This document shows positions 7,469 through 63,158 of a DNA stretch of 64,000 nucleotides, one piece after another (positions within the stretch are counted from its first letter, which is position 1; each line of letters begins with the position of its first letter). Made by a program: the position numbers and the translations under genes. The stretch comes from Promethearchaeota archaeon. GTDB lineage: Archaea; Asgardarchaeota; Heimdallarchaeia; Hodarchaeales; Hodarchaeaceae. Below the pieces are notes generated by a model. It searched no databases, was not told the DNA's origin, and saw nothing but the letters and a program-made list of their open reading frames with translations. Where the stretch lies: the NCBI GenBank assembly GCA_048938105.1, contig JBHLMN010000001.1, forward strand, positions 428,921 through 492,920, in the 5' to 3' direction.

Positions 7469-7483
7469 TTCTTCATTCCTCTA

Positions 7484-39136: not shown

Positions 39137-39146
39137 AAATAGTATG

Positions 39147-39210
39147 GCTTCAGAGAGTAATCTAGCTTCTGTTAACTCTTCAGGGTCACCCATCGGAGTT
39201 TCTGACATCA
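39147..39210 (-). repeat. rnpB 3'-end fragment, copy 1 (short, ~64 bp; att-like scar)
   Basis: Degenerate match to 60636-60700. Ends at TTTCTGACATCA. Confidence 0.85.
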
Positions 39211-39505
39211 CTCTCAATGTAACAAAGAAATATCGTTTATATAAAGCCATGTTAACAAGAAATTGATAAAAATAGCAGAATGAATAAGACCTTTTAAACC
39301 TCAATAATGATAGAGGGATTTTAGAAGATTTTTCCTCTAGGAACAACTGGAAACATGAATTTGCATTTGGAGGCGTAATATAACGAAGAAAGAATTTTTA
39401 AAGGAGTCAATCAAAGAAAGTAAAATAATTGGTAGAATTAGAACGCATTTAGAGAAACAAAGTAAAAATCTCCCTACTTTAGTTAAATTAAACTTTCTGG
39501 CAATT

Positions 39506-41290
39506 ATGGTGGGTGTGATAGGAGGATTGGGCTCATGGGTCTTTCGATTAGCAATTTCACTTATCTATGAGGTCTTTTTTTCGCTACCAATGCATATATT
39601 GAACCTTTTAGGATTATCTTTCATTAATTGGATACCTTTTCTTCTTGCTCCAATTATTGGTAGTTTAATTGTGGGTTATCTCACCTCACGAGTGTCAAAA
39701 GAAACAAAAGGGCACGGGGTTCCCGAAGTTATTGAATCGGTTGCTTTAAATAATGGAAAAATGAATTTAAGGGTTCCTTTCGTCAAGATCATTGCTTCTG
39801 CAACAACTATTGGCTCTGGTGGATCAGCAGGACGAGAAGGACCGATCTCTCAGATTGGGGCTGGATTTGCGTCCTTAGTAGGACAGAAATTGAATCTTCC
39901 TCCCAAAGAATTGCGGATTCTGGTAATTTCAGGAGTCGCAGCAGGAATAGCGGCTACATTTAATGCACCTATCGGGGGATCACTATTTGCCTTGGAAGTA
40001 TTAACGGGAGAAGGGGGGGCCATAGGGTTATTGATTCCAATAATAATAGCTGCTGTTGTTGGTGTAATAACAGGACAACTCTTACTGGGAACAAATCCCG
40101 CTTTCATTGGATTCCCTACTTTAGAATATCATGAGCCATACTTAATCCCACTTTTTGTGATTTTAGGTTTAATTTGTGGAATAGGCTCTGCATTATGGAT
40201 CAAATTCTTTTATAAAGCAGAAGATATATTTGAATATATATTTAAGAAGCTTAACATTCCTGATATCTTGCAACCAGTTTTTGGGGGGATATTTGTGGGC
40301 TTGACATTAGTTTTGACATACTTTATTGTTGGTGATCAATGGGAAACATTCACCACCATGGGACATACCTATCTTCCCATAGATTCTGTTTTCCTGGGTT
40401 CATTGTTACAAGGATCTGTTCTGCTAGTTCTCTTTATATTAACTTCACTATTTGTTCTGAAAACCCTTAATACTGCATTCACAATCGGTACTGGTGGTTC
40501 AGGAGGAGTATTTGCTCCCACTTTGTTTTTAGGGGTCATGTTAGGGGCGATATTTGGAATCATTGTAGATGATATCATTATTATTTCCAATACTCCAATA
40601 TCTCTACTCGCTTTATTAGGAATGGCTGCGTTTTTTGCAGGAACAGGTCGTGCACCATTAACAAGTATTATTATGACTGCAGAAATGACAGGAGATTATT
40701 TCTTAGCCATTCCCTTAATGATAGTAGTTTCAATCAGTTGGATCGTTTCAATAGTTCTTGAGAAAGACAATATTTATACTCTGAAACTTATTAGGAGAGG
40801 AGTCGTCTTACAGGAACCTCTCGCTGATATCCTTGAAACCATAACGGTCGAAAAAGCAATGATCCCAAGGGATAAAGTAATCGTGGTAGATACCAAGACA
40901 AGATTAGAAACAGTTTTGGAACTTGCCCGTACTACTCGTCACGAGGGATTTCCAGTAGTTGAAAAAGATCTGTTACTTGGGGTAATCACATTAAATGATG
41001 TCCAACAGGCATTATATAACTCTCCGAAGGATTGGAATGTATTTGATGTCTTGTTAACCAAGAAAAAAAATCTTATTTGTATACATAAGGAGGCAGCTTT
41101 AATGCATGCTGTTCATATTATGGAAAAAAAGGATATTTCTCGTCTTCCTGTGGTAGAAAAACATAGTCAGAAAGACGAATTTCCTAAGTTAATTGGGTGG
41201 ATAACACACCATGATATAATAAGAATCTATATATCAGAAAAAGCACTTGCAACCCTTCAAGCATCTGAAGAACATATATTTTCTTATTAA
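39506..41290 (+). CDS. CLC chloride channel/antiporter with CBS domains
   Basis: GHGVPEV, GSAGREGP, GGVFAP, C-terminal CBS pair. Confidence 0.94.
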   Translation: MVGVIGGLGSWVFRLAISLIYEVFFSLPMHILNLLGLSFINWIPFLLAPIIGSLIVGYLTSRVSKETKGHGVPEVIESVALNNGKMNLRVPFVKIIASATTIGSGGSAGREGPISQIGAGFASLVGQKLNLPPKELRILVISGVAAGIAATFNAPIGGSLFALEVLTGEGGAIGLLIPIIIAAVVGVITGQLLLGTNPAFIGFPTLEYHEPYLIPLFVILGLICGIGSALWIKFFYKAEDIFEYIFKKLNIPDILQPVFGGIFVGLTLVLTYFIVGDQWETFTTMGHTYLPIDSVFLGSLLQGSVLLVLFILTSLFVLKTLNTAFTIGTGGSGGVFAPTLFLGVMLGAIFGIIVDDIIIISNTPISLLALLGMAAFFAGTGRAPLTSIIMTAEMTGDYFLAIPLMIVVSISWIVSIVLEKDNIYTLKLIRRGVVLQEPLADILETITVEKAMIPRDKVIVVDTKTRLETVLELARTTRHEGFPVVEKDLLLGVITLNDVQQALYNSPKDWNVFDVLLTKKKNLICIHKEAALMHAVHIMEKKDISRLPVVEKHSQKDEFPKLIGWITHHDIIRIYISEKALATLQASEEHIFSY

Positions 41291-41366
41291 ACAACCACTG
41301 GATTCAGTATATATTTTCTCTCACTTGAGTTTCCCCTTTCAATCATAAGTTAATTACTCAAACTAA

Positions 41367-41771
41367 TTATTTTTTTTTGTAAAATGGCCACTGAGAAACC
41401 CAACCCTTACCAATGGGTAAAGTTGGAGATAATCGCTGTTCTGTTATCAGCCAAACCATTCCTATCCCTAGTAACAAAATTACTGGAAGCATTATACCGA
41501 TCATATACCAAGTGAGATCTTGTCCCAGGACAGAAAAAGGTGGGATGTCAAAGGTAATCCCTATCGTAATCGTATAGTAAAGGGTAAAGTCAAGTAGGAA
41601 ACCAGCTCTTAACCCAACGATGAATAAAACATCTTTATCTTCCATTTGTTTCCATAAAATCACTAATAATATTAGAAGTTCCCGTAACCCAAACACTAGC
41701 CATGTCAAAATAAATAAATTAGATCCTAATAGTGATAGTTGAACATCTCTAAGAACAGCTGCGAGAATCAT
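41367..41771 (-). CDS. Membrane hypothetical protein
   Basis: 3-4 TM segments. Confidence 0.55.
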   Translation of the reverse strand: MILAAVLRDVQLSLLGSNLFILTWLVFGLRELLILLVILWKQMEDKDVLFIVGLRAGFLLDFTLYYTITIGITFDIPPFSVLGQDLTWYMIGIMLPVILLLGIGMVWLITEQRLSPTLPIGKGWVSQWPFYKKK

Positions 41772-41922
41772 GAATGTTAGGCCAATAAAACAACCTACAA
41801 CATGGAAAAGAGATGCTGGACGCAGTTTAATCTCCTATTTTTTGTACACCTATTACTCGAATTAACAGTCCTCATCTTTAAGATTTTCGATCCCACTTTT
41901 ACCGAATAGCTCTAGTGTTACT

Positions 41923-42708
41923 TTAGTCTGAAAAAGCATTCTTAACCTCTTTTAGAAATGAGTCTCTTTCTGTAAAGAATGATTTGATTGGTTTGCCGTT
42001 AACAATGCAGAAAGAGATTTTTCCACGCTTCTCACATTCCACAGGCTCATTATATTGATTAATGATCCTTATCGGGGCCTGTGGTACCGCTTCCTCTACC
42101 AATTTCTTGATAGCTTTAGTAAAACGAACACAAAAAGGACATGAGATGTCAACGAAAATTAATACTTTTCCTTCATCCTCTTTTTGAGGAATATAGCACG
42201 TATATTTCGGAACATATACAAATCCCTTTTGAATAGGATAATAGAGGAGAAAAGGGTGATTATCGTAAACTTTTTGAAAGCCTCCAAGAATAAAGAATTC
42301 CTTTTGAGAGAAGCGCCCAGGCACATCAAATGTATGTGCTACAAGTGCCAATGGTGGTTTGTCATTAAAATAATGTTGAGGGTATTGCATCTCTTCAAGT
42401 AACGCTTTTAATAAGGCATTACCCACTCCTCTACGATGATACTCCTTTTCAGGTACAAATATACATGTTATCTTAATTAAACGCTCATCAATATCTGGTA
42501 AGTACTGAATAAATCCAACAAGTTTTGAATTGAAAAAAGCTAGTTTGGCAATGCTTCCATATTTCTTTAGATTCTGCTTTATCCATTTTTTCTTTAGCTT
42601 AGATCCTTCTATAAAAAGGGGATCATCTTGTTGGTCAGGTGGAAGACACAAGTTGATCAGATCATCAATATGTGCCATATTGAGGTCTTTAAGTTCAATT
42701 CTTGTCAA
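41923..42708 (-). CDS. GNAT acetyltransferase with YoaP/thioredoxin-like C-terminus
   Basis: VGFIQYLP, ITCIFV..YHRRGVG, C-terminal CPFC. Confidence 0.82.
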   Translation of the reverse strand: MTRIELKDLNMAHIDDLINLCLPPDQQDDPLFIEGSKLKKKWIKQNLKKYGSIAKLAFFNSKLVGFIQYLPDIDERLIKITCIFVPEKEYHRRGVGNALLKALLEEMQYPQHYFNDKPPLALVAHTFDVPGRFSQKEFFILGGFQKVYDNHPFLLYYPIQKGFVYVPKYTCYIPQKEDEGKVLIFVDISCPFCVRFTKAIKKLVEEAVPQAPIRIINQYNEPVECEKRGKISFCIVNGKPIKSFFTERDSFLKEVKNAFSD

Positions 42709-42791
42709 TACATTCTACTCATATGATTTAAATCGGAATTTTCGAGACATTAAAGAAGAAAGATAGCCAAACCTCTTACAAAGAAGTGAGA

Positions 42792-42864
42792 GGGCGTCGA
42801 TCCAGAGAGTAATTCAGCTTCTATTAGCTCGTCAGGGTCACTCCATCAGAAGTTCTGACATCAA
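42792..42864 (-). repeat. rnpB 3'-end fragment, copy 2 (short, ~73 bp; att-like scar)
   Basis: GGGCGTCGATCCAGAGAGTAAT...TTCTGACATCAA matches 60629-60701 with several substitutions. Confidence 0.88.
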
Positions 42865-42949
42865 AGTACGTGTCGTTCATTAAATTTACCCTGAAATCTT
42901 TTTAAATTTATAGGGAAATGGAAGTATCTGAATGTGAGGGATAAAGAAG

Positions 42950-45019
42950 TTGAAGAAATATCATTTGAATCTAGTATTTAGATCTCTTTTATTCTTTATT
43001 TTGATTAGGACTATGCTCTACAATTCATCTATAAATTCATTAGATTCTGATGAGACATTAAGTCCACTAAAGGCTACTTCTATAGAAGCTAAAACAAGTT
43101 ATTACGATATTTCTAATTATATATATGTTGAGAATGACTCTGAATTAGCCAAAGTAGCAAGTAGCGGCAGCGGCTTAAACGAAGACCCCTATATCATCGA
43201 GCGCAAAAATATAACCACAACCTTTCCTTTGGGAATCTATATCAGTGGTACATCAAAATATTTTGTAATTAGAAATTGTTTTGTTAGTACGGGTCTGATT
43301 TGGGGTCATATTGGGATTTATCTAGAATATGTAGCAGCAGGAACAGCTAGGATCATTAACAATACCTGCAAAAATAACAGTGATGGAATAAAAATCTATT
43401 ATTCAAACAATTGCACAATTAGCAACAATACTTGTCAAAACAATAGTCTAGGATTTTTCACCGCAGGAATATCAATCTATCATTCTAATAATTGTATAAT
43501 AAATAATAACACTTGTAAAGGAAATGTTGTTGGAATTAATATTGAGAATTCCAATTCAGCATTAGTTTTGAATAATTCGTGTAGTCAGAACATACAGGGA
43601 GGTGTTAATATCATTAATTGTGAGTTTATACAAATTATTAACAATACATTCTTTGATAACAGCATTAGATTCAATACTTTCACGAAAAAGAGCTACTTTT
43701 CATATGTAGTCCAAAATAATTTTTTTGACTCCCTCCCTATTGGCTATATTATCAATCAAAGCGATATATTAATTTCGAAAATTTATAGACAACTCATTCT
43801 AGTCAATTGTATAAATGTTACTATTCGTGATTATGATAATACAATTCTAGCCTTAAATTTTTACTATTGCACGAGTTGCCACATCATCAATAATAGTTTC
43901 GCTCATACTTGGTCTGGTGTGGAACTTTTAGGTTCGATCGCTATACGGATCCATAATAATACGTTCTTAGATTGTTACATAGGTCTATCCACTGTTTTCT
44001 CTAATTCCTCTTTCATTACCAACAACTCATTTTTTCAATGTATGGCTGGTATTTATTTAAGTCATTCTTCTTCTTCAATATTAACTAACAATTTATGTAA
44101 TCAAAATGAGGCATTTGGAATATATGTTGGGTACCAATCGCCAAATACTATTATTGACAGTAATATCTGTAATCACAATAAAGGAAATGGAATTCAGACT
44201 GAAGATGCAGGATCACCTATTCTGAAAAACAATTTATGTAATGAGAATAGTCGTTATGGTATAGATATTGAGGATAAAGCCAGTGTTATAAATAATACAT
44301 GCAATCAAAATGGATTGGAAGGTATTCAACTTTTTGATTTTGAATCATCTAGCGTTAGTAATAATACTTGTAACGAAAATAATGGGAGTGGTATTTTCAT
44401 ATGGTCTTCAGATAACGTTATTGCTTCTAACAACAATTGTACGAAAAATAAAATAAGTGGAATACAACTATTATCGTCAGGTTCCTCAATAATTAAGAAA
44501 AATTTCTGTACACACAATGATCGCGATGGACTTCTGCTTGAGCGTTCTGATGACTGCATTATCAGTTTTAATTCTTTTGAACACAACACTGAATATGGGG
44601 TTACACTTAGTGACGAATCCTCCAACAATATTATATATTCCAACCGTTTTATTGATAATGGGGTAACTAAAAATTTCAATTCTCAAGCTTATGACGATTC
44701 AATGAATAATTCTTGGTATGATTCATCAAGGAGTGTAGGTAATTGCTGGTCTGATTATTCTGGGTCTGGGTTTTATGTTATTGCTGGGACTGCAGATTCG
44801 GTAGATCAATATCCAAACTATTGCGATAACAAAACATCTATCAGTACATTTACTCAGGTGCCTTTATCTAACTCTTCTATCCAACCAACTTCTATAAGTC
44901 AAACTTCTGTAACAACCAGACTTATTACGACAACTTCGATAGCCTTAGTTCATGGTTTTGGGATTATCCTAATATTTGTGACAGCTGTTCTGGCAAGGAT
45001 GAAAAGAAGAAACAGATAG
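42950..45019 (+). CDS. NosD/right-handed parallel beta-helix surface protein with S/T linker and C-terminal TM anchor
   Basis: GSG..EDPYII, many NNTC..N..GI repeats, GNCWSDY, hydrophobic tail followed by KRRNR. Confidence 0.88.
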   Translation: MKKYHLNLVFRSLLFFILIRTMLYNSSINSLDSDETLSPLKATSIEAKTSYYDISNYIYVENDSELAKVASSGSGLNEDPYIIERKNITTTFPLGIYISGTSKYFVIRNCFVSTGLIWGHIGIYLEYVAAGTARIINNTCKNNSDGIKIYYSNNCTISNNTCQNNSLGFFTAGISIYHSNNCIINNNTCKGNVVGINIENSNSALVLNNSCSQNIQGGVNIINCEFIQIINNTFFDNSIRFNTFTKKSYFSYVVQNNFFDSLPIGYIINQSDILISKIYRQLILVNCINVTIRDYDNTILALNFYYCTSCHIINNSFAHTWSGVELLGSIAIRIHNNTFLDCYIGLSTVFSNSSFITNNSFFQCMAGIYLSHSSSSILTNNLCNQNEAFGIYVGYQSPNTIIDSNICNHNKGNGIQTEDAGSPILKNNLCNENSRYGIDIEDKASVINNTCNQNGLEGIQLFDFESSSVSNNTCNENNGSGIFIWSSDNVIASNNNCTKNKISGIQLLSSGSSIIKKNFCTHNDRDGLLLERSDDCIISFNSFEHNTEYGVTLSDESSNNIIYSNRFIDNGVTKNFNSQAYDDSMNNSWYDSSRSVGNCWSDYSGSGFYVIAGTADSVDQYPNYCDNKTSISTFTQVPLSNSSIQPTSISQTSVTTRLITTTSIALVHGFGIILIFVTAVLARMKRRNR

Positions 45020-45298
45020 TATTGAATGATATCTTCTTTGGACTCAAGGTCAGTTTTAAATGGAGCCATATCATTACAAGTCTCATTAATGTAAAAGACG
45101 TGAGAAGGGTTAGGTTTGATCTTGTTTCTATCACTTAGGCTTTTACGGTTGATTTTCAATAATTTTCCCTTAAGAGAAATTTACTAAGATTGGAAGTCAT
45201 TTTAATTTAATATTATTATGAATATTTTTAATTACAAAAAATATCAGGTTTTTTAAATGGACTCAGAAATAATCCTCATATAATCAATTCAATGAAAG

Positions 45299-46312
45299 GT
45301 GATCCATATATCATCTCAAGAGAAACAGCCTCATCCTGCATGGTATAAAGTAAGTGAAATTAATTATGGTCGTGAAACTATTATCTGGATAACAATCATG
45401 GGTCTAATCTTAAGTGTGATTGGAACTTTCATTAGTATATTGTTTTTATTCTTCTTAGGGATAATTAATCTCCCAAGGGAATTCCAAATCATTATTGATC
45501 CTGTTTCCCCTCTTATTGTTATGTTGATTATTGGATGCTTTCATGAAGGAATTCATGGTCTTGTTTTTAAATTCTATGGAAAAAATGTAAAATATGGATT
45601 CAAAATTATGTATAATGTTATTCCTGTTTTCTATGCTTATTCTAAAGGAATTTTCTTTAGGAACCAACTTATCATCGTCTGTTTAGCCCCTTGTTTTCTG
45701 ATCACAGCTGCCCTTTCAATTATTTTGATTATAACTATTTATCAAAACTTAGTTTGGATTTCATTATTTCTTATTGCAATAATTCTTGCTCATCTTGCGG
45801 GATGTGGTGGAGATTTCTATCTCACATATCAATTATTGAAATATCCTTCAACAGTAATTGTAGAAAATACAGGAGTTGATGATCCATTCATTATTTGGAA
45901 TGATTCAGAATTAAAATCACTGAACTATTCTATTATTCCCCAAACTTGGATTATTCCTAGATATCTGAATCCAGTACTAAAATATAGCAGAAATTTAGCA
46001 AGTGGTTTATGTCTATTCCTTCTATTGGTAATATTAGGAGTAACAATTCTAGGTATACTTCTTCCAGTGATAATGATACCACTGATGACAAAAGAACTTC
46101 AACTGTTGGGTTTTCATTATATAAGAACTTCAATTGGGATAGAAATTAGCTGGGTTCATCCCTGGGAATTACTAATGATTAGCTTCCTAGGAACTATTTC
46201 AATTTATGTTAGTTATAGGAAGATCTTCAGTTTAAAACGAAAGAAATCATTAGAAAGTGAAGTAGATGATTCTTCTGAAAATGAAAATGCAGGAATCCCA
46301 TTTTTTATTTAA
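45299..46312 (+). CDS. DUF3267-type membrane zinc metalloprotease
   Basis: HEGIH, LAP, AGCGGD motifs; multi-TM. Confidence 0.82.
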   Translation: MIHISSQEKQPHPAWYKVSEINYGRETIIWITIMGLILSVIGTFISILFLFFLGIINLPREFQIIIDPVSPLIVMLIIGCFHEGIHGLVFKFYGKNVKYGFKIMYNVIPVFYAYSKGIFFRNQLIIVCLAPCFLITAALSIILIITIYQNLVWISLFLIAIILAHLAGCGGDFYLTYQLLKYPSTVIVENTGVDDPFIIWNDSELKSLNYSIIPQTWIIPRYLNPVLKYSRNLASGLCLFLLLVILGVTILGILLPVIMIPLMTKELQLLGFHYIRTSIGIEISWVHPWELLMISFLGTISIYVSYRKIFSLKRKKSLESEVDDSSENENAGIPFFI

Positions 46313-46488
46313 AAAATCAATAGCTATTAACAAAAGGATTCAATGAGATGAAAAAGGAGAAAGACCGATGAGGAACAAGCGAGCATTTAAAGACAAAATT
46401 GTGACCCTCACGGATTTTTTCAGTGCCTAGCACTCCTTCTTCCTTTAGTTTTTATAATAGTACAGTAGTAATTGACAGGAAAGGTATA

Positions 46489-47931
46489 TTACTTATTATA
46501 TAGTAGTAATCTGGTTTCGAGGTCTGGATTTTTCATGTCTAGTTGAAGAAACGTTTTTAATATTTGAAACCCAGCTAAATGGTCGTTAGGAGGAGCTTTC
46601 CATAATTTCATTGAGTCACCTCCCATAAATCGCAAATAGAACGTTTGTTTAGATTTTTCAATATTGAGAAGAGCTTTTTTCGGGATTATGAGGGAAGTGA
46701 TTTCTTTTTGGAAAACTTTGTTTGAAATGTTTATGAATACTCCCCAAAATTCAATATATTTCCGACTAATAACATCTGTTAGGAAAAGATATCCAAACAA
46801 TAATGAGATTAATGAGATAATTATAGAGATTAGAAAAAATACAATAATGCCAATTTCTTGAGGAGACTTAGAAAAATCTCCATTAGGAAGCGTAGATCCA
46901 TTAGATATGATATATAGAGTTAATATGATGAGGAGAGCTAATACACAAAGGAAAAATATTAAGAATGTAGTAATAATTATTCTTCCCAATATATTTATAT
47001 TCCCTCTTTTCTTTGCACGAAGAATATAAACATCATGATGGGATTCTATATCAAATTTTGTTTTAAGGGGTTTGTATTGGTCAACTAAGTCATTCAAAGG
47101 AAGCCCCTTTACTTTTGTATAAGGATCTAGATCATCATTTTTTTCTATAATTTGGTCAATGACAGTTAAAATGTTATGACTTGGAAAGACAGTAGATGTG
47201 GATTTATGCGGACGATTACGAAATTTTTTCCACTGACTTAGCTCTACTGAACCTTTTGTTACAATCAATACAGGATAATGACTGAGTATGTGAATGAGCT
47301 TATAGTAAAACGGGGCTACATTGGCTAGTCCTGCCCATGTCCACATTTTTATTGGGTCATCGGATTCTGAGAATTCTAGTTGATTGTAAAACCTAACTGA
47401 GATAAAATAACTCCTTGTGCTTACTCGAATTTCAACACTTTCGACCTGTTCTAAATTGATCTGATCTGTTACTACTTGGGTGTAAAAATCTCGAATTGAA
47501 TAAAGAACCTTATTAACAGAATCATGAATAATGTGGTGTCTTGGAAGGTTTATAAAGATTATAACCCATCCAGTCAAAGATAATAGACCCTGAAAAACCA
47601 AGATAAATATGAATAATTCTAAATCAAATCGATTACAGATAAAATTGAATAAGATAAAGATCATGACCGTTAAAACCAATAAATACTGTTTCCAAGGGAC
47701 ATGACATGTCTGGTTTGGCCATTTTAACATTAAGTACCCAATGCTGATAAGTAAAAGCGCAAGTAACATAACGAAACCATTTATGGTTAACGTTATTAGT
47801 TCTGAATTGATTATAAATACAATAATAAAGAATAAGGAGTGAAGAAAGATACCAAAAAGGGAATTGACAACAGAATATAATCTAGATCCCATAGGTATTT
47901 TCAAATTATTCTCTAATGCGTAGTACTCCAC
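46489..47931 (-). CDS. Membrane hypothetical protein
   Basis: 480 aa, 4+2 TM segments, each group followed by a soluble beta-rich domain. Confidence 0.72.
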   Translation of the reverse strand: MEYYALENNLKIPMGSRLYSVVNSLFGIFLHSLFFIIVFIINSELITLTINGFVMLLALLLISIGYLMLKWPNQTCHVPWKQYLLVLTVMIFILFNFICNRFDLELFIFILVFQGLLSLTGWVIIFINLPRHHIIHDSVNKVLYSIRDFYTQVVTDQINLEQVESVEIRVSTRSYFISVRFYNQLEFSESDDPIKMWTWAGLANVAPFYYKLIHILSHYPVLIVTKGSVELSQWKKFRNRPHKSTSTVFPSHNILTVIDQIIEKNDDLDPYTKVKGLPLNDLVDQYKPLKTKFDIESHHDVYILRAKKRGNINILGRIIITTFLIFFLCVLALLIILTLYIISNGSTLPNGDFSKSPQEIGIIVFFLISIIISLISLLFGYLFLTDVISRKYIEFWGVFINISNKVFQKEITSLIIPKKALLNIEKSKQTFYLRFMGGDSMKLWKAPPNDHLAGFQILKTFLQLDMKNPDLETRLLLYNK

Positions 47932-48077
47932 AAAATTGCCCTCTAGATAACATAATGCATTCTGATTTTCAAATACTCTGGGATTTAATTGTATATTATC
48001 CTTTAAAATGTTATAGATCCAAAACTTTTAGAGGAGGAGTAAATTAAAATTTCAGTAAGTTAGATGGGTATTGAAAT

Positions 48078-50342: not shown

Positions 50343-50658
50343 GTTTCTTCCTCCAATAATTCCTATTATGAAGAAGTTATGTGGAATGTGAAGTCTTTCT
50401 TAGAATTCCACCTTATTAGTGGGAAAAAGTTTTATTTCTCTGTAGGTGGTGTTTTTTTCGCAAGAATTAACTAACCCACACGCTTTGGGCACCATGCTTT
50501 TAAAGGAAGGATGTGTCAAAAAGCTAGATATCCTTGCTTTTACAGGGGGTAAGTAACGATTGGACGGTTGATTGAAAAGAATTACAAATAATAATTGCAT
50601 TGGAATGATAGACATTCCGAAATGTTTTAGAAAACAGCCACTTATTTTATTAAATCGT

Positions 50659-52900: not shown

Positions 52901-53437
52901 TCGAATTCTCCAATATAATTTTGAATATTTTAATTAAAAACTAACTATTTAGTACACGGATATAAAATATTGAGAATCCAATAGTAATGAAAGACCCAGA
53001 GAAAAAGATTTTGTGTGTACTCCTCAGTAGACTCTTGTCAAGTTTAACTGATTTTTCTGATAACTCATCTTGTTTGTACTCATCAAAAAATCTGGGGATA
53101 AAGTTCTTAAGATCAAGAAAATGCTAGATAGATCCAACCAGCATTATATCATAACTAGATCCAGCAATAATGAGACCTAAGCTAAAAAAATGTACAAATA
53201 TCGTCATCTATATCACCGTGAAAATTCCCACTAAGCTTAATTTCAAACAAATATTGTTAAATCATTTTGACTTAATTTTTATCATTAACCAACTATAAAT
53301 GCTGTTTAGGTAGCAATTGAATCTAAAATATTACGCTGTGAAGTTCAATTTGTATTCTATTAATTTTCACCACTTTTGGAAATTCTTCTTTCTTCCAATA
53401 CTAACCTAATAATCACTTTAACATAAAATAAAAGTGA

Positions 53438-53616
53438 GGACGTCGCTCCAGAGAGTAATCCAGCTTCTGTTGGCTCGTCAGGGTCACCCCATCCGAGTTT
53501 CTGACATCAACCTAAGCGCTGCACTCCATGGCCCCCAAAGAGACCATTACTTCAGCTTGCATTCACTGAGGATGCTCGTTTCACCGATACCCTGCTCGTC
53601 CTCAGGAGATTAACTC
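53438..53616 (-). repeat. rnpB 3'-half fragment, copy 3 (179 bp; att-like scar)
   Basis: Matches 60629-60807 with 4 substitutions by my count. Ends at GGAGATTAACTC. Confidence 0.95.
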
Positions 53617-53843
53617 ATTCAGAAATTGATAAGTATACCTGATTTTCGTTCCTTCCAGATAATAAATCTCATGGGGGAAGATTTTTTTCAAAAAATCGTT
53701 CAGATAACTGAAAAGTAGCAACGGCGGCGTGGAGGCCAAATGGTTCCCTTCCAGATAAGCCGTCGACTAGAGGCGCCGACGCCCCGTTCCTCTCGTACTG
53801 AGAACGTCTTCCTCTCATAGATTCAACATGTCCCAGACTTAAT

Positions 53844-54035
53844 TCATAGTTTGTAACCGACAGTTGCATTGACGCGGAGTTGTTGCTCCTCGTAAATGGT
53901 TTCCGTACCAACCCAACCACCTGAAGATGCAATCAACATCATCTTGCCAGTACTAGATTCTTTTGGGTTAATGGGTAACCTAACAATAACTTCATTTTTT
54001 TCTTCATCAATTTCAATTTTAACCAGTTTCATCAC
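53844..54035 (-). CDS. Small hypothetical protein (SxxGKxxxIASxGG motif)
   Basis: 63 aa with a GAGGTG Shine-Dalgarno at the start and protein-like composition. Confidence 0.75.
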   Translation of the reverse strand: MMKLVKIEIDEEKNEVIVRLPINPKESSTGKMMLIASSGGWVGTETIYEEQQLRVNATVGYKL

Positions 54036-54104
54036 CTCTTAAGACAATTCTAGTTTCTTCCCTTAATTTGTAGGACACTTTGTGAATTTTAGTTAAATTA
54101 AAGT

Positions 54105-54821
54105 TTATTGGATAGTTTTAAGTTCATTGATGAGATATAATAAGGAATGCCAAACCAAGTTTGAATCCCCTGCTGAAGCCAATTTTGGGTTCTCATGGGC
54201 GTATAAGTTACGTAAATTACGAATAATTTCCTGAACATTCTTAGTCATTTCTTTCTTCTGTTTTGGTTGTTTTTGAGTTGATTGAAACCTATTAAATAAT
54301 TTTAGAATGCCCCATTTCTCTTCAAATCTAATTGAATTTTTATTCATTTTCTCTTTCAATATATATTCAGTAATCTTACCGCATAAAATTATTGAAGCAT
54401 CAAAAAAGCCCAAGAGATGGAGTTTCCTCGCGTTCACTAATGATTCTTTTAAATAAGGATCTAACTGTCTCTTTTCTAAATCTTGAAGTTCTCTCAAATC
54501 TGATATATCCTTCAGTTGTCTAATTGCTCTACAAATAAGATAATCTCCACGATAAACATTCTTTTGCCACTTAGGAATAAACATTTTCTGTTTCACATTA
54601 AGTTTTGAGAAATTGGGAATGTTTCCCATCGTCCTAAGTAATCTAAAGGATTTCTTCTGTTCATTAATCTTATTGAGAGATTCTATTGTATTGTTGTCAA
54701 TAATCATGGCCCAAGTAAAAATCTTGGTTAAAATTTCATTATTCTTATTTAACCAATTTTCATATTCACTTCTAATATCAGAAAGATAAGATGTATTATT
54801 CATGAAATCTTCACTAGCCAA
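54105..54821 (-). CDS. HEPN (DUF4145/Abi-like) domain protein, putative RNase toxin or defence protein
   Basis: ASIILCGKITE followed by IRNLRNLYAH (Rx4H HEPN motif). Confidence 0.75.
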   Translation of the reverse strand: MASEDFMNNTSYLSDIRSEYENWLNKNNEILTKIFTWAMIIDNNTIESLNKINEQKKSFRLLRTMGNIPNFSKLNVKQKMFIPKWQKNVYRGDYLICRAIRQLKDISDLRELQDLEKRQLDPYLKESLVNARKLHLLGFFDASIILCGKITEYILKEKMNKNSIRFEEKWGILKLFNRFQSTQKQPKQKKEMTKNVQEIIRNLRNLYAHENPKLASAGDSNLVWHSLLYLINELKTIQ

Positions 54822-54870
54822 ATCAGTTCTTCAGAGGATTTCAGCATGTTTCAATTCATACAATACAAAG

Positions 54871-55014
54871 TTATTTAGGGTATTTAGTTGCACCTTTTGC
54901 GTCAGACCGTTTCTTTCTCCATTTTCCAGACATTGTTCTTGATCTAGGTGCATATTTTCCATTTTTTGTCTTAACATGTGGTCCTGCTTTTTTACCTGCT
55001 CTACGATCAGGCAT
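54871..55014 (-). CDS. 47-aa highly basic small protein (not in the ORF track)
   Basis: MPDRRAGKKAGPHVKTKNGKYAPRSRTMSGKWRKKRSDAKGATKYPK, preceded by the SD GAGGTGA. Confidence 0.65.
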   Translation of the reverse strand: MPDRRAGKKAGPHVKTKNGKYAPRSRTMSGKWRKKRSDAKGATKYPK

Positions 55015-55032
55015 TTGTCATCACCTCTTTGA

Positions 55033-55710
55033 TTAGTTCGCTATTGAAACACTACTACATTTTCTTCTCCAGATTGTTAGATAATAATTGTGTTCAAAGG
55101 TATTATTACATATATTACACGTAAAATCTAGGAATTTTGACCAAAATCGGTCTAGTTTGTCTAATATATAGCTATGAACACTTTCTTCACGACACACTGG
55201 GCAAATAATTTTTAGATAGATTTTATGATTTGTTTCATTTACTTTTTCACATTTTTCTACAAAATATTGAATTCCCAATCTCGTTTGATGCCACTTTTGC
55301 ATCCTTGGAAAATGATCAAAAGTACTATCCATAGGATAGTGGTATTGAATGCTTGATTTTTGATTTATAACTGAAATATGATTATTGAAATCTGTTAGAA
55401 AATTCTCTACATCGTCAAATCGACATTTATTTAGAATATCAATGATTCCTCGGTTTTCAAGCCTTTTTAAAATTCTTTTACCAAATTTTGAGATGATACA
55501 TGGTCTTATATGAAGATGCTTGGGTGTTCTATTTTTAACAAGACCTTTCTTAATTAACCAATCACATATGGCACCAGAGTCGATGAAAGAAGGCAATCCA
55601 CTAATTTTAAGCTTTTCTCCTATGAAGCAGAGCGTGATCAATGCATGTTCATTTTCTAGAAGATTTTTTATACCTGCCACGTTGCTATCATCTCTGCCAT
55701 ATTTGTCCAC
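55033..55710 (-). CDS. Hypothetical protein with wHTH-like N-terminus and C-terminal Zn ribbon
   Basis: WLIKKGLV....ISKFGKRIL wing; CPVC...CNIC. Confidence 0.7.
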   Translation of the reverse strand: MDKYGRDDSNVAGIKNLLENEHALITLCFIGEKLKISGLPSFIDSGAICDWLIKKGLVKNRTPKHLHIRPCIISKFGKRILKRLENRGIIDILNKCRFDDVENFLTDFNNHISVINQKSSIQYHYPMDSTFDHFPRMQKWHQTRLGIQYFVEKCEKVNETNHKIYLKIICPVCREESVHSYILDKLDRFWSKFLDFTCNICNNTFEHNYYLTIWRRKCSSVSIAN

Positions 55711-56043
55711 TCGATTATCAAGGTTTCCTAGAAGGAAACAAAGATTCAGTGTCTAATAACTTTTGATTATCATCCTTGAATGTTTGCCTCACTAGTTTTG
55801 GTTCATCAATCTCCGCAGAATTTTTTCAATCCTCTTCTCCAGACTCCATAATTATAATATAACCTTTTTTTAACTTCAAAATTGAATGGTTATTTTGTAC
55901 ACTGCATATTAGGGAAACTTTAAATAGATTACGTATAAATGAATAAAATGAATTTTTTTGCGTACTAATGAAATATGACGCTACTATATCAATATACTAG
56001 AGCTGTAGTACCTTGATATGAAACTCCTTCTGGTGGATACTAG

Positions 56044-56652
56044 ATGAAACGAACTCCTTTAGCTGTTATTATTGATTTGATGGTTGGATTAAATACTCTT
56101 TTATTAGAGGAAGATTATTCTATTAACACTGTCTCAGAAATCACAAACCTTCATTGGGAATCTACTAATCGTTATTTGGAAATCATTAGAAAGATTCAAG
56201 ATTACTCACCATTTTTTACATTCACCCAAGATAGAAAAATAAGGATCTTAGCACGAAATCCGAATTTAAACATCGAAAACGATGATTTAATATTAGTTTA
56301 TAGTTTACAAAATAAAGCATTTGATGAACAATCAGCGATCGTACTACCAAATTCTTTAAATGCAGAGATAGAATTCTTATTGGATAAAGAGTTTGGTGTA
56401 TTACAAAAGAACAGAAAATTCTTTCTAACTCAAAGAGGAAAGGAAATGGCGCTTGATATTTTTCTAGAAATCCAACAAAAAATTGAGTCAGCTCAAACAG
56501 CCCATATAGGCATGAATGATTTTGATTTCGATAAATTACGTAAAATAAACTTAAAACAGAGAGAAATGGAATCCATTGCTGATAATATAATTGCAATCAT
56601 TTTCGAGAAACTTGAGAAAAGTAAATGTGACAAAGAACTCGAGGTTCACTAA
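56044..56652 (+). CDS. Winged-helix DNA-binding protein
   Basis: SINTVSEITNLHWESTNRYLEII HTH; second wing FFLTQRG. Divergent from the HEPN cluster. Confidence 0.72.
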   Translation: MKRTPLAVIIDLMVGLNTLLLEEDYSINTVSEITNLHWESTNRYLEIIRKIQDYSPFFTFTQDRKIRILARNPNLNIENDDLILVYSLQNKAFDEQSAIVLPNSLNAEIEFLLDKEFGVLQKNRKFFLTQRGKEMALDIFLEIQQKIESAQTAHIGMNDFDFDKLRKINLKQREMESIADNIIAIIFEKLEKSKCDKELEVH

Positions 56653-57138
56653 GCAGGTTGATTTTTCTGTCTTTTTCAATTCTAAATATTTCTAAGTTGT
56701 AAATAGGATAAGTGCGGGGTGGGGATTGTGATTGGATTGATTGATTTATCACCTGTCAGAATATCAGAACAAATCGAGTTAAGTACAAAAAATGCATCTT
56801 CAAATACAACCCAGCTTTATAATGTTTCAACAAACGCTTACAGTTTAAGTTACCAAGTGAAAGTTTATGGATATCAATAAGATCTTTTTGGGGGAAATAT
56901 CGTTGCTAATCTATAACTTATCTGCTTTTCATCTTATAAATGTTTCATTTTAAGGTTAAAATGAGTTTCTAATGAAATACATAGGTAACAAATAACCAAA
57001 TTGAGCATTGAATGAAAAATAATGTTAGATTTGATTTTATTTTTTGTTTTCGATTTTTTATCTATTGTTTTTCGAATTATTTTTCCATTCTCACACCTCC
57101 ATAATCCTATACCTGTTGTTGATGTAAAATAATTGGAA

Positions 57139-57317
57139 GGGCGTCGCTCCAGAGAGTAATCCAGCTTCTGTTGGCTCGTCAGGGTCACCCCATCGGAGTT
57201 TCTGACATCAACCTAAGCGCTGCACTCCATGGCCCCCAAAGAGACCATTACTTCAGCTTGCATTCTCCGAGGATACTCGTTTCACCAATGCCCTGTTCGT
57301 CCTCAGGAGATTAACTC
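57139..57317 (-). repeat. rnpB 3'-half fragment, copy 4 (179 bp; att-like scar)
   Basis: Matches 60629-60807 with ~10 substitutions. Ends at the same GGAGATTAACTC breakpoint as copy 3. Confidence 0.95.
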
Positions 57318-57412
57318 AAGGACTCCAGAAATTAAAAAGATGATTTCACTTATAAGTTCCCTTGATATACATCATATATTAAAAAAACAAGAGATTTGAA
57401 CTTATGTCCAAG

Positions 57413-57919
57413 TCAGAGCGATTGTGGTGAATCCTTAAAAACAGAATACGCTACTCCTGTAGGATAAGGGGGAGCTGTGTCCAGAAATAGCTTAATCATA
57501 ATTAATGATGCTAATAGATTGACTAAAAAAGCTGTGAATCTAATATTTTTACTCAATCCATACTTTTCTTGGCCTGGTATCGTAAAGATCCCATTTCCAG
57601 CATGTAGTGAAAGAGTAAAAAGTAATGCTGGAGTACTATTAAATATAAAGTCGATTGGATACGTAGCTCGTTCTTTAATAGTAACCAGGGTCATACCAAT
57701 TAATGATGAGACCATAAAGATCGCTATTTGTATAAGAAGATACAATGGTTTAGCAATAAGTCTTTTATTCTTACCTTGTTCGAAGGTTGATACCGAAACG
57801 TTAAGTTTTTCTCCAATCTCATCAATTTTCTTCTTATTCAAAAAATTTACCCCAATAAACGCAGTGCGATTATCAAATAAAATCTTATACAAAACATGAT
57901 CTAGGGGACTGTTATACAT
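57413..57919 (-). CDS. Membrane hypothetical protein
   Basis: 168 aa with ~3 TM segments. Confidence 0.55.
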   Translation of the reverse strand: MYNSPLDHVLYKILFDNRTAFIGVNFLNKKKIDEIGEKLNVSVSTFEQGKNKRLIAKPLYLLIQIAIFMVSSLIGMTLVTIKERATYPIDFIFNSTPALLFTLSLHAGNGIFTIPGQEKYGLSKNIRFTAFLVNLLASLIMIKLFLDTAPPYPTGVAYSVFKDSPQSL

Positions 57920-58066
57920 ATTTTAGTATAACTCCCTTACCATTGTTCAAGAAAAAGATCTATAAATATTTTTATGATTCTGGGTTCATATTAAAAAATC
58001 GTTTATGTTACTCTTATCCTCCAAATAAGATGTTAAGTTTTAGTAGGTCAGGTATATACTACTCTT

Positions 58067-59377
58067 TCATCGAAGAACGGGTATATCAATTACAGATCCT
58101 CGTACTCTTTCTTTTACTCCTCGAAGTTCTTTTAGTATTTCTTCTTTTTCAGCTTTAGTTGTAGATAAAGTTAACGCAGTTCGATAGAAGTATGAGGTTT
58201 TAGGGTCATCTGTCAACGCTCCTAAACGACCTAAATTCCAATAGATAATATAGTTATCAGAAATTAATCTTGAAGATACAATAAACAAGTCTTTAGCTTC
58301 TTCATACCGTTTTAAATAGAATTTTCGAAGACCTTGATTATAACAAGTAGCAGCCTTGTTCATGATAAAGAAAAAGTCAAAAAAATGGATAGATTCAGAA
58401 CTCAAGGAACGAGTATAGGAAAAAGTCTTTTTTAAATCAGAATCAGTGGTGAATACCTGATAAAGTTTAGATTCTAGATCAACTATAAAAGATTGATAAT
58501 CTTTTTCCAATTCTCCAGGCGTTTTTTTTCGTTTAACCCATAATGTGAATATTTTCTGGTGAAAATCAATGTTTTGTAAAAAATTTATGGTTTTACTCAT
58601 TTTAATTTGATATTTATCTAAAATATGGGTATAACGTGTGATTATTTGCAGCAATATTCCTGCTAATAATGGATTACAGATAGACAATCTGGTAAGGGCA
58701 TGAATGCAATTGTTAAGCATGTTTGTTTTCTCTTTTTTGTCTAAATAGGACTCAATATTTTCAATATGATTTTTTTCTAACAAATGAGTGTTTTTCACAT
58801 GTCCAGAAAATATAATTGGCGTAATATTTGTTCTAAAAGCGTGAATGAGAGTTATGTCTCGAATTTCATTGGGAAAAGGTTTTTTGCAGGTAATTCGTAA
58901 TCCTTTCTCGTATTGATGACTCTGAGGAGTTTCTTTCCTAATCTTAACGAATCCTGCCTTCAACAAAAAGTTAATAAGAATTTCACTTGTGAAACCCGTT
59001 TTATGCCGCATTCCAGGGTTTTTTACACCATAAATCCACTGTAGAGTTGATATTTGTGATGATAAGTCTTTTAAACGGGAGATCTTTCTACTGGAAGACT
59101 TTAAATCAGGTACTTCGATAATCAAGCTCCCACCTTCTTTTAATATTCTGAACCACTCATTCAATATGTATTTGACTTCCACCCAGTCAAAATGTTCAAG
59201 TAAGTGAAAAGCCTCTATCATCCCAACTATATTTGACTTGATCGGTAAAAAAGCAGCATGAGCACCAATGTCTGCAGCACTCAAATTAAATAGATCTACA
59301 TTCAAAAAACCAACGCGGTACTTCAATCCACATCCTAAATTAAGAGAAATCTCTGAAGTTTTTTCATTATATATCAT
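58067..59377 (-). CDS. Class I SAM methyltransferase (type 11) with C-terminal TPR
   Basis: LNLGCG, NVD, HLLEH, RILKEGG..VPD; TPR-like YNQG...YEEA...YWNLG. Confidence 0.82.
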   Translation of the reverse strand: MIYNEKTSEISLNLGCGLKYRVGFLNVDLFNLSAADIGAHAAFLPIKSNIVGMIEAFHLLEHFDWVEVKYILNEWFRILKEGGSLIIEVPDLKSSSRKISRLKDLSSQISTLQWIYGVKNPGMRHKTGFTSEILINFLLKAGFVKIRKETPQSHQYEKGLRITCKKPFPNEIRDITLIHAFRTNITPIIFSGHVKNTHLLEKNHIENIESYLDKKEKTNMLNNCIHALTRLSICNPLLAGILLQIITRYTHILDKYQIKMSKTINFLQNIDFHQKIFTLWVKRKKTPGELEKDYQSFIVDLESKLYQVFTTDSDLKKTFSYTRSLSSESIHFFDFFFIMNKAATCYNQGLRKFYLKRYEEAKDLFIVSSRLISDNYIIYWNLGRLGALTDDPKTSYFYRTALTLSTTKAEKEEILKELRGVKERVRGSVIDIPVLR

Positions 59378-59385
59378 AATATAAT

Positions 59386-60417
59386 CTAATCCTCATTGAC
59401 CTGATTTTGGATAATATCTGTTTCTATACGATGAAAACAGTACGGATCATTATGGAATTGTTCCATCAGTGCATAGGAAACCGAGTTACAACCTCCTTGG
59501 CAAGTCAAGTTGTGTGGGCAACGAATACAGTATGATCCTATTTGGTTTTTCGAAAATTGTCTGTTATAAGAAAACGTATCTTTACTGTACCAAATCGATG
59601 ATAATGATTGCTTTCGTATATTCCCTTCAATGAAGCGATCATTTCCCATGGCTAAACATCCAACGATTCCACCATTACTTGTAATCCCAATTGAACTGAT
59701 TCCAGCAGTACAGCCATTCCAAAGAAAATTTGGCATCACACTAGAATGATACCCCATAGAATGGGCTCCGACAACTGGCATGTTTTGGAAGTGATGTTTA
59801 GCTCTTAGTTCAGCAATGAATAAGCCTACAGCATAAAATTCTTCATAAGAAAGCATTTTATCTTTTGTGAATTGACCAAAAGGTGCTGCCAATTGAATTT
59901 GCCAGTTAACCCCTTTATTATAAATAAGAGTCTTTAGTTTGGGAAGCTCATTGAAATTAATTTTGCTAACTGTTGTTATAATAGTTACATGGATTTGTTT
60001 TCTTCTTAAAAGATTGATTGCTTTAATTGCATTAGTGAAAGTTCCTTTTACACCACGAATGAGGTCGTGTGTTGTTCGTAAACCATCAAGACTAATGCCA
60101 ACCACGGTTGGTTTTAATTCAGCTAATTCATTGATGTATTTATTAAGAATAAACCCATTAGAAACAATACTCAATTCTATGCCAAGATCTTTAATACAGC
60201 TAGCAATTTCATACCAATCTTTTCGTAAGAAGACTTCTCCTCCCATTAAAGCAACATTATCACACTTTAAATGGGCTAATTGCTCACATAACGAAAACGA
60301 TTCCTCAGTGGTTAATTCATCACTTCGGGCTTGACCTGCGGATGATCCACAATGAGAACAACGTAAATTACATTTAAGAGTGGTTTCCCATATTGCGCAC
60401 TCCAATGAATAGTTCAT
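59386..60417 (-). CDS. Radical SAM protein with SPASM domain
   Basis: CNLRCSHC, GGE, SLDG..HD..RG, CTAG...GC...C..C.....C.GGC...C. Confidence 0.92.
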   Translation of the reverse strand: MNYSLECAIWETTLKCNLRCSHCGSSAGQARSDELTTEESFSLCEQLAHLKCDNVALMGGEVFLRKDWYEIASCIKDLGIELSIVSNGFILNKYINELAELKPTVVGISLDGLRTTHDLIRGVKGTFTNAIKAINLLRRKQIHVTIITTVSKINFNELPKLKTLIYNKGVNWQIQLAAPFGQFTKDKMLSYEEFYAVGLFIAELRAKHHFQNMPVVGAHSMGYHSSVMPNFLWNGCTAGISSIGITSNGGIVGCLAMGNDRFIEGNIRKQSLSSIWYSKDTFSYNRQFSKNQIGSYCIRCPHNLTCQGGCNSVSYALMEQFHNDPYCFHRIETDIIQNQVNED

Positions 60418-60629
60418 TGCATCGACCTTGCAGAATAAAGTAAAATACTAAATATTAGTTACTTAAGGTGACTGACCCTCATTAACACAACATATATTCA
60501 CTTGAGACTTTAAAAAATTCTGATTTCTATTTTTGTTCTGAAATTCTCTCTTTTTCTCGGATTTTTCACGTATTGACAGTATTAACAACAGTTTATGAAA
60601 ATAAAAGTTGAGCCATAAAGAAAGCAGTG

Positions 60630-61002
60630 GGCGTCGCTCCAGAGAGTAATCCAGCTTCTGTTGGCTCATCAGGGTCACCCCATCCGAGTTTCTGACATCA
60701 ACCTAAGCGCTGCACTCCATGGCCCCCTAAGAGACCATTACTTCAGCTTGCATTCACTGAGGATGCTCGTTTCACCGATACCCTGCTCGTCCTCTGGAGA
60801 TTAACTCGTCCACTGTTACCAGCGTCTTCACTCCATCATAGCCATGAGAACAGGGGCGTTGCGTTTCTGTAGCAGAGCCCAACCTCTCGGTTGACAGCGA
60901 ATAGTTACCCACAGGTACTATCCGACTGTTCAGCATACAAGAATGGCTGGAATTTCCTCAGGTTTTCGGAGAAACCCGGAGTCAGACTTCTGCTTCGACG
61001 CC
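60630..61002 (-). ncRNA. rnpB: RNase P RNA (archaeal type A-like, ~373 nt)
   Basis: Minus strand: P1 GGCGTCG/CGACGCC; P2 TCTGAC/GTCAGA; GAGGAAATTCCAGC pairs with ACAGAAGCTGGATTA (P4 with bulged U); P5 CATTC/GAATG followed by CAAG; conserved ACAGAAAC and TGAAAC; P12 base CCCTGTTC/GAGCAGGG. GC-rich block in AT-rich DNA. Confidence 0.93.
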
Positions 61003-61039: not shown

Positions 61040-61136
61040 AGGGTTTCACGTTCTAATCCTCTTGCCTAAACCTCAGGCCCTACTGCCGTCATACGATTTG
61101 GAAACGGCTATTAGACGCTTTGTTGTGCATTTTTCC

Positions 61137-63070: not shown

Positions 63071-63158
63071 ATCCTAATTTTCCCCCAAATATGTTAACAC
63101 CATGTTGATAAAACTTTTTATAACAAAAGAGAGCCATAAGCTCGAATTTAGGATTTGA

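Follow-up and report, generated by a model that had tools for sequence, protein, structure and literature searches.

Tandem 3' fragments of the gene for RNase P RNA bound accessory gene blocks in a Hodarchaeales archaeon

Why should an essential ribozyme gene be followed, on its own strand, by a series of truncated copies of its 3' end, with blocks of accessory genes between them? The question is raised by the gene for the RNA of ribonuclease P (rnpB) in a stretch of 64,000 nucleotides (nt) from a Promethearchaeota archaeon of the order Hodarchaeales, hereafter the window. The window forms the final 64 kb of contig C52 in an assembly of 5.85 Mb in 65 contigs, which we call G000; other G-numbers denote genomes of the same genus, and L-numbers denote loci or contigs taken from genomes or metagenomes. 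A first-pass annotation, made from the letters alone, had described an intact rnpB with four same-orientation copies of its 3' end and had proposed that integrative elements used the gene repeatedly as an attachment (att) site. We find that the array is real, that its cargo differs between related species and that it has very probably arisen by serial Campbell-type insertion, in which each event restored the RNA gene.

The coordinates of the gene and its four partial copies hold in covariance-model (cmscan), repeat and BLAST searches (Table 1). The intact gene matches the Rfam model of archaeal RNase P RNA over its full length (model positions 1-288; E 2.3e-38), its 137.1 bits exceeding the gathering score of 84, and the repeat unit extends to ~60617, which adds ~18 nt of 3' flank and a T-rich tract. 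All four copies lie on the strand of rnpB and reach its 3' end together with a few flank bases and the T-rich tract. Copies 2 and 3 are 94% and 98% identical to the gene over ~183 nt each, and copies 4 and 5 are 85% and 89% identical over ~65-85 nt. The blocks that they delimit, A to D, measure 3313, 3523, 10574 and 3582 bp, in agreement with the ~3.3, ~3.5, ~10.6 and ~3.6 kb of the first-pass annotation. The locus is laid out like an island array at an RNA gene, with direct repeats of the 3' end, in the orientation of the gene, bounding the blocks and the intact gene standing at one end. Across the 5.85 Mb of the genome, rnpB matches occur at five places only, on one strand of one contig (E 1.9e-16 to 3.4e-201). 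A 27-mer from the rnpB 3' end has four matches at up to three mismatches, where shuffled sequences gave an expectation of zero, and blastn-short found no further short rnpB remnants between genes within the blocks.

These results bear on readings in which nothing was inserted, namely local duplication of the rnpB 3' end with gene turnover, dispersal in the manner of short interspersed nuclear elements (SINEs) or miniature inverted-repeat transposable elements (MITEs), or an artefact of assembly or binning. A scattered family is excluded, since rnpB sequence turns up at these five places of the assembly and nowhere else in the genome. An assembly artefact is ruled out because the copies are diverged (by 2-15% from one another), each is flanked by unique sequence, and the architecture recurs in independent assemblies, including a closed, single-contig genome. 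Local duplication has one observation on its side, as some duplication does occur within arrays: G003 has paralogous copies of one cassette end. However, no unknown protein family was found to recur across the cassettes, the blocks share no paralogy beyond generic ABC and NosD domains, and homologous fragments enclose different cargo in different relatives. The readings without insertion are largely refuted, and we consider it very improbable that any of them accounts for the array.

The comparison with relatives covered the 20 other genomes of the genus, 17 of which have an rnpB match. A full-length covariance-model match is present in only 13 of these genomes; G003, G012 and G020 have none, and G008 has a 33-nt piece only. 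Metagenome-assembled genomes, fragmented and with assembly breaks at these repeats, make up most of the relatives, and G003 and G012 are without an assembled intact rnpB. Downstream of the gene, the relatives differ in gene content, with other cargo in some, a minimal version in one and no detected fragment in others; the blocks are sporadic, and the corresponding sites are empty or differently filled. Arrays of 3' fragments with different cargo are found in the five closest congeners, G011, G014, G003, G012 and G009, with rnpB identity of at least ~90%. In G011, the full gene is accompanied by fragments at 1214, 2599, 4183, 5176 and 8988 of locus L033, with blocks of 0.6-3.8 kb, and many blocks in relatives measure 0.6-1.5 kb. 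G014 has the full gene with a fragment 3.7 kb off, as well as block A beside a fragment on a second contig; at least four fragments lie on two contigs of G003, with more on matching metagenome contigs; and G012 has two fragments on a 2.7-kb contig.

The minimal state is that of the single-contig genome G009, in which rnpB, a ClC gene and one 49-nt fragment are followed by the host-flank genes of the window. The flank of the window at and below 39132 is syntenic with G009, and the ClC gene, which in the window belongs to block D, is on its own the only block of G009. Eight more distant congeners, searched with the rnpB of their own lineage, have one rnpB each and no fragment detected nearby; in one of them, G001, rnpB and the conserved flank genes are 2.5 kb apart. 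A covariance-model search across the class misses rnpB fragments even in G000 and says nothing about other families. Intergenic homology is lost at 75-90% identity, and cassette limits within blocks are not definable at this distance.

Some loci in the comparison have lost or replaced the 5' part of the gene. In locus L040 (contig C204 of G003, 4880-8432), the sequence upstream of rnpB is conserved to ~4 nt before the gene start, and three open reading frames (ORFs) of 167, 270 and 496 amino acids (aa) follow, and then an rnpB fragment (positions 284-373), the body of the gene (1-283) being missing. The rnpB copy of G015 (L041, 9869-10217) scores 71 bits, below the gathering score, and its first ~60 nt, corresponding to P1-P3 and CR-I, are unrelated AT-rich sequence; the flank of this copy is partly masked with N. 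A similar 5' replacement is seen in metagenome contig L051. The G015 and L051 copies may be long 5'-truncated fragments rather than working genes.

Cassettes common to several genomes retain their own flanking rnpB half-sites. Block A recurs at other array positions in G011, as the fifth block, and in G014, with 80-86% nucleotide identity. It is preceded by the 3' end of the working gene in G000 and by fragment f4 in G011, and the two stretches, from gene to block A and from f4 to block A, are continuously homologous from rnpB position ~326, including a T at 335 and the 3' flank CCACT. On the G011 side, this homology begins abruptly at ~326. The fragment after block A carries the GAGTATCCTCGG variants in both genomes, being copy 2 in G000. 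The comparison also shows that block A brought with it the final ~50 nt of the ribozyme gene now working in G000. Similarly, a cassette consisting of a PadR gene and the gene of a 505-aa protein has an identical left limit, position 244, in G012 and G014. Shared half-sites are the pattern predicted by a circular intermediate with one composite site, which we infer here. A G002 fragment is closer to the rnpB of G005 (91.7% identity) than to that of its own genome (71.9%); its origin is horizontal, from another lineage.

Campbell-type insertions, repeated at the 3' part of rnpB, would build a tandem accretion array of this kind. With each of them, a DNA circle would have come in with a copy of the rnpB 3' end, and the crossover would have rebuilt an intact gene by joining the 5' part in the host to the 3' part on the circle. 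The former 3' end would have been displaced downstream and left there as a 5'-truncated fragment. Four such events, or fewer together with insertions into existing fragments, would yield the order rnpB-A-c2-B-c3-C-c4-D-c5, where c stands for copy. The inserted units would be small gene cassettes without an integrase, resembling cis-mobilizable elements or Xer-dependent dif modules and not self-sufficient islands.

The crossover may have been placed by a hairpin within the ribozyme. At rnpB positions ~318-338, between the 3' strand of P2 and CR-V, the gene has a GNRA-capped hairpin, CTCGGATGGG-GTGA-CCCTGATGAG, that is lacking from the Rfam RNaseP_arch consensus. All 14 aligned full congeneric rnpB genes have it, and its stems covary through compensatory changes. 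Across the genomes, the left limits of fragments range from position 158 to ~329. The shortest fragments start at 318 (G003), 322 (G009) and 326 (f4 of G011), and a G015 fragment matches from 327, although the masking of its upstream flank hides its true start. Two fragments without the 3' end stop at 333 (f1 of G014) and 338 (f3 of G011); f3 and f4 of G011 bracket a 0.9-kb insert and overlap by ~10 imperfect nt only. Breakpoints fall at 318-338 in six to seven fragments, depending on the masked start in G015, and the other left limits at 158-303. A cluster at the hairpin is the pattern that a fixed crossover at a dyad-symmetric site would leave, as at the loops of transfer RNA (tRNA) genes, and it suggests such a site without being proof. 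A recombinase encoded elsewhere would then cross over in or just 3' of the hairpin. That a recombinase acting in trans at the hairpin makes the exchange is not proven; we favour it over homologous recombination alone and would give it an even chance.

The same architecture is present at the 23S ribosomal RNA (rRNA) gene. On contig C8 of G000, the 3' end of this gene occupies 53937-54756, where it is cut by the contig end, and 3' fragments of the gene lie in the same orientation (loci L073 and L074; C8:27759-54756; Table 1). The two blocks of 7.3 and 18.3 kb encode an AbiEi/AbiEii toxin-antitoxin pair, Ras-like GTPases, a Kelch protein, a methyltransferase and a NosD protein of 1177 aa, and no recombinase was found in this array. 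The 23S piece is present in multiple copies across the genus, often at contig ends, and a single left limit, which lies just 5' of the sarcin-ricin loop, is common to nearly all of them. In the window, block B contains a 23S fragment (33.5 bits, E 4.3e-08) located ~60 nt 5' of rnpB copy 3, whose left boundary is that of the C8 fragments, and one gene of the rnpB array in G011 has a homolog downstream of the 23S array of G000. On the strength of these two observations, material seems to pass between rnpB and 23S arrays. For tRNA genes, the G000 data were uninformative, as ARAGORN gave only 20 tRNAs and one inverted 40-nt piece of tRNA-Leu. No Rfam RNA gene was found at other repeat-rich loci of G000 (contigs C37, C56, C64, C53 and C42).

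If an integrative element inserted these blocks, its enzyme might be expected among the cargo. The search for one applied Pfam to ~70 ORFs, PHROGs to 10 unknown proteins and six-frame searches with PF00589 (Phage_integrase), PF00239 (Resolvase) and PF16795 (Phage_integr_3). In or beside ~25 blocks of seven genomes, no tyrosine or serine recombinase was found, intact or as a remnant, and the recombinases that the first-pass annotation had suggested looking for next to rnpB fragments in relatives did not appear. In the whole of G000, the six-frame searches gave three Phage_integrase matches (contigs C14, C56 and C45) and no match to Phage_integr_3; of the four matches to Resolvase, the closest lies 180 kb from the window.

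The outcome also speaks to the reading that the blocks are decayed classical integrative elements, that is, viruses, plasmids or islands with an integrase of their own, from which integrase and backbone were later deleted while useful cargo and att scars were left. In its favour, the fragments differ from the gene by 2-22%, and most events are therefore old. Two blocks common to several species, block A and the ClC block, look vertically inherited, and tandem arrays with integrase-less remnants are known at tRNA genes. Yet no element has an integrase gene inside it, six-frame searches found no integrase remnant in the arrays of G000, G009, G011, G014, G003 and G012 or on the 23S contig, and PHROGs found no viral or plasmid hallmark genes in the cargo. 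Moreover, the species-specific, hence younger, blocks of G011 measure only 0.6-1.5 kb. We regard decay of this sort as improbable.

Further candidates were tried and set aside. ORFs of ~500 aa that end just before fragments in G003, G012 and G014 were considered as recombinases; they are mutually unrelated, and the 505-aa one is the membrane protein paired with PadR. A split integrase of the Sulfolobus spindle-shaped virus (SSV) type was sought in the ORFs that overlap fragments (60463-60678, 56934-57188 and 39095-39346); Pfam matches none of these, and their conservation is limited to the part derived from rnpB. Chimeras formed by reverse transcription or template switching, in which an mRNA is joined to the rnpB 3' end, were rejected because the genes adjacent to fragments lie in both orientations.

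Each genome searched (G000, G003, G009, G011, G012 and G014) has one conserved XerA-like gene, which in G000 lies at C14:173967-174788. A second tyrosine recombinase of G000 (C56:201270-202136) has homologs of 70% identity in G012 only and of at most 42% elsewhere and does not follow the arrays, a patchy distribution that neither supports nor excludes it as a trans-acting candidate. This gene is preceded by an overlapping ORF of 156 aa and lies amid direct repeats of 60-137 nt (G000 C56:187952-216754; for example, 188017-188092 and 200670-200746, which are 96% identical), possibly as part of a conventional integrated element, and the region has no Rfam RNA gene.

Several points weigh against insertion by a site-specific enzyme at rnpB. 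No candidate recombinase for the arrays has been identified, and the further tyrosine recombinases of these genomes are sporadic and do not track the arrays. In pattern scans of viral, metagenome and genome contigs, an rnpB-like attP was matched only by related chromosomal arrays and by no extrachromosomal carrier. The process is not specific to rnpB, and a site-specific enzyme would need two specificities, given the 23S array of the same architecture. NadA is present or absent inside one cassette without the involvement of an rnpB fragment. As for the breakpoints, left limits that vary between 158 and 329 are also expected from the arbitrary length of homology in homologous recombination, the cluster of short fragments could mark the minimum homology still able to recombine, and the two truncated fragments could be deletions at a deletion-prone hairpin.

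Much of this would be explained by homologous recombination alone, through a RecA/RadA-type crossover with the rnpB of a related cell in a conserved segment of the RNA gene. The circles would come from pop-out between direct rnpB repeats, or from illegitimate circularization of a donor rnpB 3' end with its downstream genes, and only 3' fragments would be seen because only circles that carry the 3' end of the gene leave a working gene. The empty result for recombinases in ~25 blocks of seven genomes agrees with this explanation, as do the length of the duplications (47-211 nt at rnpB, ~300-370 nt at 23S), the variation in their left limits, the use of two different conserved RNA genes and the presence of ordinary chromosomal genes, located elsewhere in sister species, in the cargo. 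It draws further support from junctions that are inherited while the cargo differs, such as the ~10 nt of non-rnpB junction sequence, AATTTCTG, that copies 2 and 3 share. However, homologous recombination would need more than the imperfect overlap between f3 and f4 in G011. Within ~20 nt at the hairpin, two independent truncations coincide with three short fragments, or four if that of G015, with its masked flank, is counted, and nearly all 23S fragments share one left limit, as expected from a fixed site or a single origin but not from random circles. We consider homologous recombination alone rather unlikely; whatever the enzyme, serial insertion that restores the RNA gene remains our preferred account of the array as a whole. 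With regard to the integrative process that the first-pass annotation had placed at rnpB, the confinement to one locus, the common orientation, the variable cargo in relatives and the 3' part travelling with block A all speak for it; the blocks, having no integrase, are not recognizable integrative elements.

What, then, do the cassettes carry? Block A is a conserved three-gene unit (57413-60417), retained in three species and possibly a cluster for peptide or cofactor modification. The genes of block B have no match in the genus, the matches of the block being limited to the pieces derived from rnpB and 23S and to two short stretches at 53727-54053. Block C is a mosaic. In G009, its ABC module and 480-aa gene are found at 3.08 and 3.35 Mb, far from rnpB (2.63 Mb); G011, G012 and G005 have the ABC module on other contigs. 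Between G005 and G000, the identity is 90% for this module and only 77% for rnpB. A gene of 161 aa inserted in the G011 array has syntenic chromosomal orthologs in G000, G003, G007 and G009. Several cargo genes are ordinary chromosomal or accessory genes of the pool of the genus.

Table 1. Features of the rnpB array and of the related 23S array. Coordinates are those of the window unless preceded by C8, a contig of G000.
Feature	Location	Strand	Basis or remark
Intact rnpB	60635..60997	-	Rfam RF00373 (RNaseP_arch), cmscan
GNRA-capped hairpin	60665..60688	-	Insertion relative to the Rfam consensus in the cmscan alignment
Block A	57323..60616	-	Pfam
Block A, radical SAM/SPASM enzyme	59386-60417	-	Pfam
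Block A, 436-aa protein, weak N-terminal methyltransferase match	58067-59377	-	Pfam
Block A, 168-aa protein without family match	57413-57919	-	Pfam
rnpB 3' fragment, copy 2	57127..57322	-	rnpB positions 196-386; repeat search and BLAST
Block B	53622..57126	mixed	Pfam; small unknowns besides the named genes
Block B, winged helix-turn-helix (wHTH) protein	56044-56652	+	Pfam
Block B, 225-aa protein	55033-55710	-	
Block B, DUF4145-like protein	54105-54821	-	Pfam
Block B, 23S rRNA fragment including the sarcin-ricin loop, GC-rich	53683..53833	-	Rfam LSU_rRNA_archaea, model positions 2732-2874
rnpB 3' fragment, copy 3	53426..53621	-	rnpB positions 196-386; repeat search and BLAST
Block C	42865..53425	mixed	Pfam; partners of the ABC ATPases are large membrane proteins
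Block C, ABC ATPase and 475-aa protein	50659-52900	-	Pfam
Block C, ABC ATPase and 487-aa protein	48078-50342	+	Pfam
Block C, 480-aa protein	46489-47931	-	
Block C, DUF3267 zincin-like protein	45299-46312	+	Pfam
Block C, NosD/beta-helix protein	42950-45019	+	Pfam
rnpB 3' fragment, copy 4	42780..42864	-	rnpB positions ~302-386; repeat search and BLAST
Block D	39211..42779	mixed	Pfam
Block D, GNAT-thioredoxin protein	41923-42708	-	Pfam
Block D, 134-aa protein, unknown	41367-41771	-	
Block D, ClC channel with CBS domains	39506-41290	+	Pfam
rnpB 3' fragment, copy 5	39147..39210	-	rnpB positions ~303-367; last before the conserved host flank
23S 3' fragment, ~300 nt	C8:46367-46669		Same orientation as the 23S gene
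23S 3' fragment, ~300 nt	C8:27759-28068		Same orientation as the 23S gene

Beside an ABC module of the block C type in G009 (L063, 3068000-3087999), there are further local direct repeats. One is a 75-nt unit with the perfect hairpin ATGACTTCA-AAAG-TGAAGTCAT, and the other a 220-nt unit resembling the 3' end of a small membrane-protein gene; each is present in three copies there and in scattered copies in G000. The 5' side of rnpB is also variable (window 61100-64000; G000 C46:80665-86412). Upstream homology with G009, G011 and G014 ends 60-230 nt before rnpB, and that with G003 at ~500 nt. Upstream of rnpB, G009 has 3.8 kb of unrelated genes (230 aa, 137 aa and a histidine kinase), followed by synteny with contig C46 of G000, and contig C52 terminates in a NosD-repeat gene 3 kb upstream of rnpB. 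Elsewhere in the window, an Rfam tRNA at 9948-10052 (+), missed by ARAGORN, has an insertion of 32 nt after the anticodon stem, presumably an intron.

The array accounts for ~21 kb of accessory genes beside an essential ribozyme gene. Across arrays, the cargo includes transporters, candidates for defence of the toxin-antitoxin and HEPN type, and a radical SAM cluster, with Ras-like GTPases in the 23S array. A broader reading is that Hodarchaeales have a system of cassette capture and exchange that docks at the 3' ends of conserved structural RNA genes, at rnpB and independently at 23S, with recombinase-less cassettes moving between arrays and species. The copy of the RNA-gene 3' end would then serve as the address label of a cassette, and movement would be due either to a recombinase, of the host or of a helper, that reads an RNA-gene hairpin or to homology with genes shared by all relatives. 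We advance this reading tentatively, while leaning somewhat against it. If the cassettes are mobile in trans, they would allow genes to be exchanged in Hodarchaeales, a lineage with a large and fluid gene content that is debated. One study (PMC8813620) places Hodarchaeales as the Asgard lineage closest to eukaryotes; for these archaea, the exchange system, if real, would amount to gene flow along an integron-like route.

How does the array compare with known systems? At islands in tRNA and transfer-messenger RNA (tmRNA) genes, the incoming copy makes the gene whole again and the 3' fragment that it displaces ends up at the far end, and tandem insertion is textbook knowledge. Islands of this class, as collected by Islander and TIGER, resemble the present arrays in the 3' target within a structural RNA gene, the restored gene, the displaced fragment, the same-orientation tandem arrays and a dyad-symmetric hairpin as the likely crossover site, comparable to the anticodon and T loops of tRNA. 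They differ in that here the target is rnpB (and 23S), no block has an integrase, blocks are as small as 0.6 kb and the cargo is ordinary accessory genes. TIGER/Islander requires an integrase per island by definition and sorts sites as tRNA/tmRNA, coding or intergenic (PMC12424338). Arrays of the rnpB type are therefore invisible to current island finders, since such sites are classed as intergenic and blocks without an integrase are discarded (PMC12424338). No report of rnpB as an attachment site was found in the literature searched, and RNase P goes unmentioned in two papers about Asgard mobile elements, which agrees with the first-pass annotation, unaware of any description of such an att site in archaea; the use of the 23S gene as well, and of blocks without an integrase, departs from what it had envisaged. 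A provirus of the SSV type would differ in having int(N) and int(C) pieces, which do not flank the blocks here.

Elements without an integrase of their own offer closer parallels. At the att sites of integrative and conjugative elements (ICEs), such as ICESt1 and ICESt3 of Streptococcus thermophilus, cis-mobilizable elements (CIMEs) arise by accretion and mobilization; they have no integrase, are bounded by att copies, lie in tandem and use the recombinase of another element. The blocks are alike in lacking an integrase, in being bounded by att-like copies and in accumulating in tandem at one site, but here no helper element or integrase has been identified, the host is an archaeon and the target is an RNA gene. 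Xer-dependent modules (integrative mobile elements exploiting Xer, IMEX, at dif, and the pdif modules of Acinetobacter plasmids) are bracketed by sites and moved by a housekeeping recombinase. Like them, the blocks are small recombinase-less modules between recombination sites, and a XerA-like gene is conserved in the Hodarchaeales searched; the repeated site here is an rnpB fragment and not a dif-like site (no comparison with dif was made). Integrons have also reportedly been found in archaea, by Ghaly and colleagues in 2022. In contrast to an integron, the array has no intI beside it, the ORFs upstream of rnpB in G000, G009, G014 and G003 being mutually unrelated and none of them a recombinase; its repeats are pieces of an essential RNA gene and not attC-type sites (no attC model was run), and its cassette genes lie in both orientations with intergenic regions of their own. 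What the array does share with integrons is its order: small cassettes, mostly of one to three genes, each followed by a copy of the site, and the same cassettes found at different array positions in different genomes.

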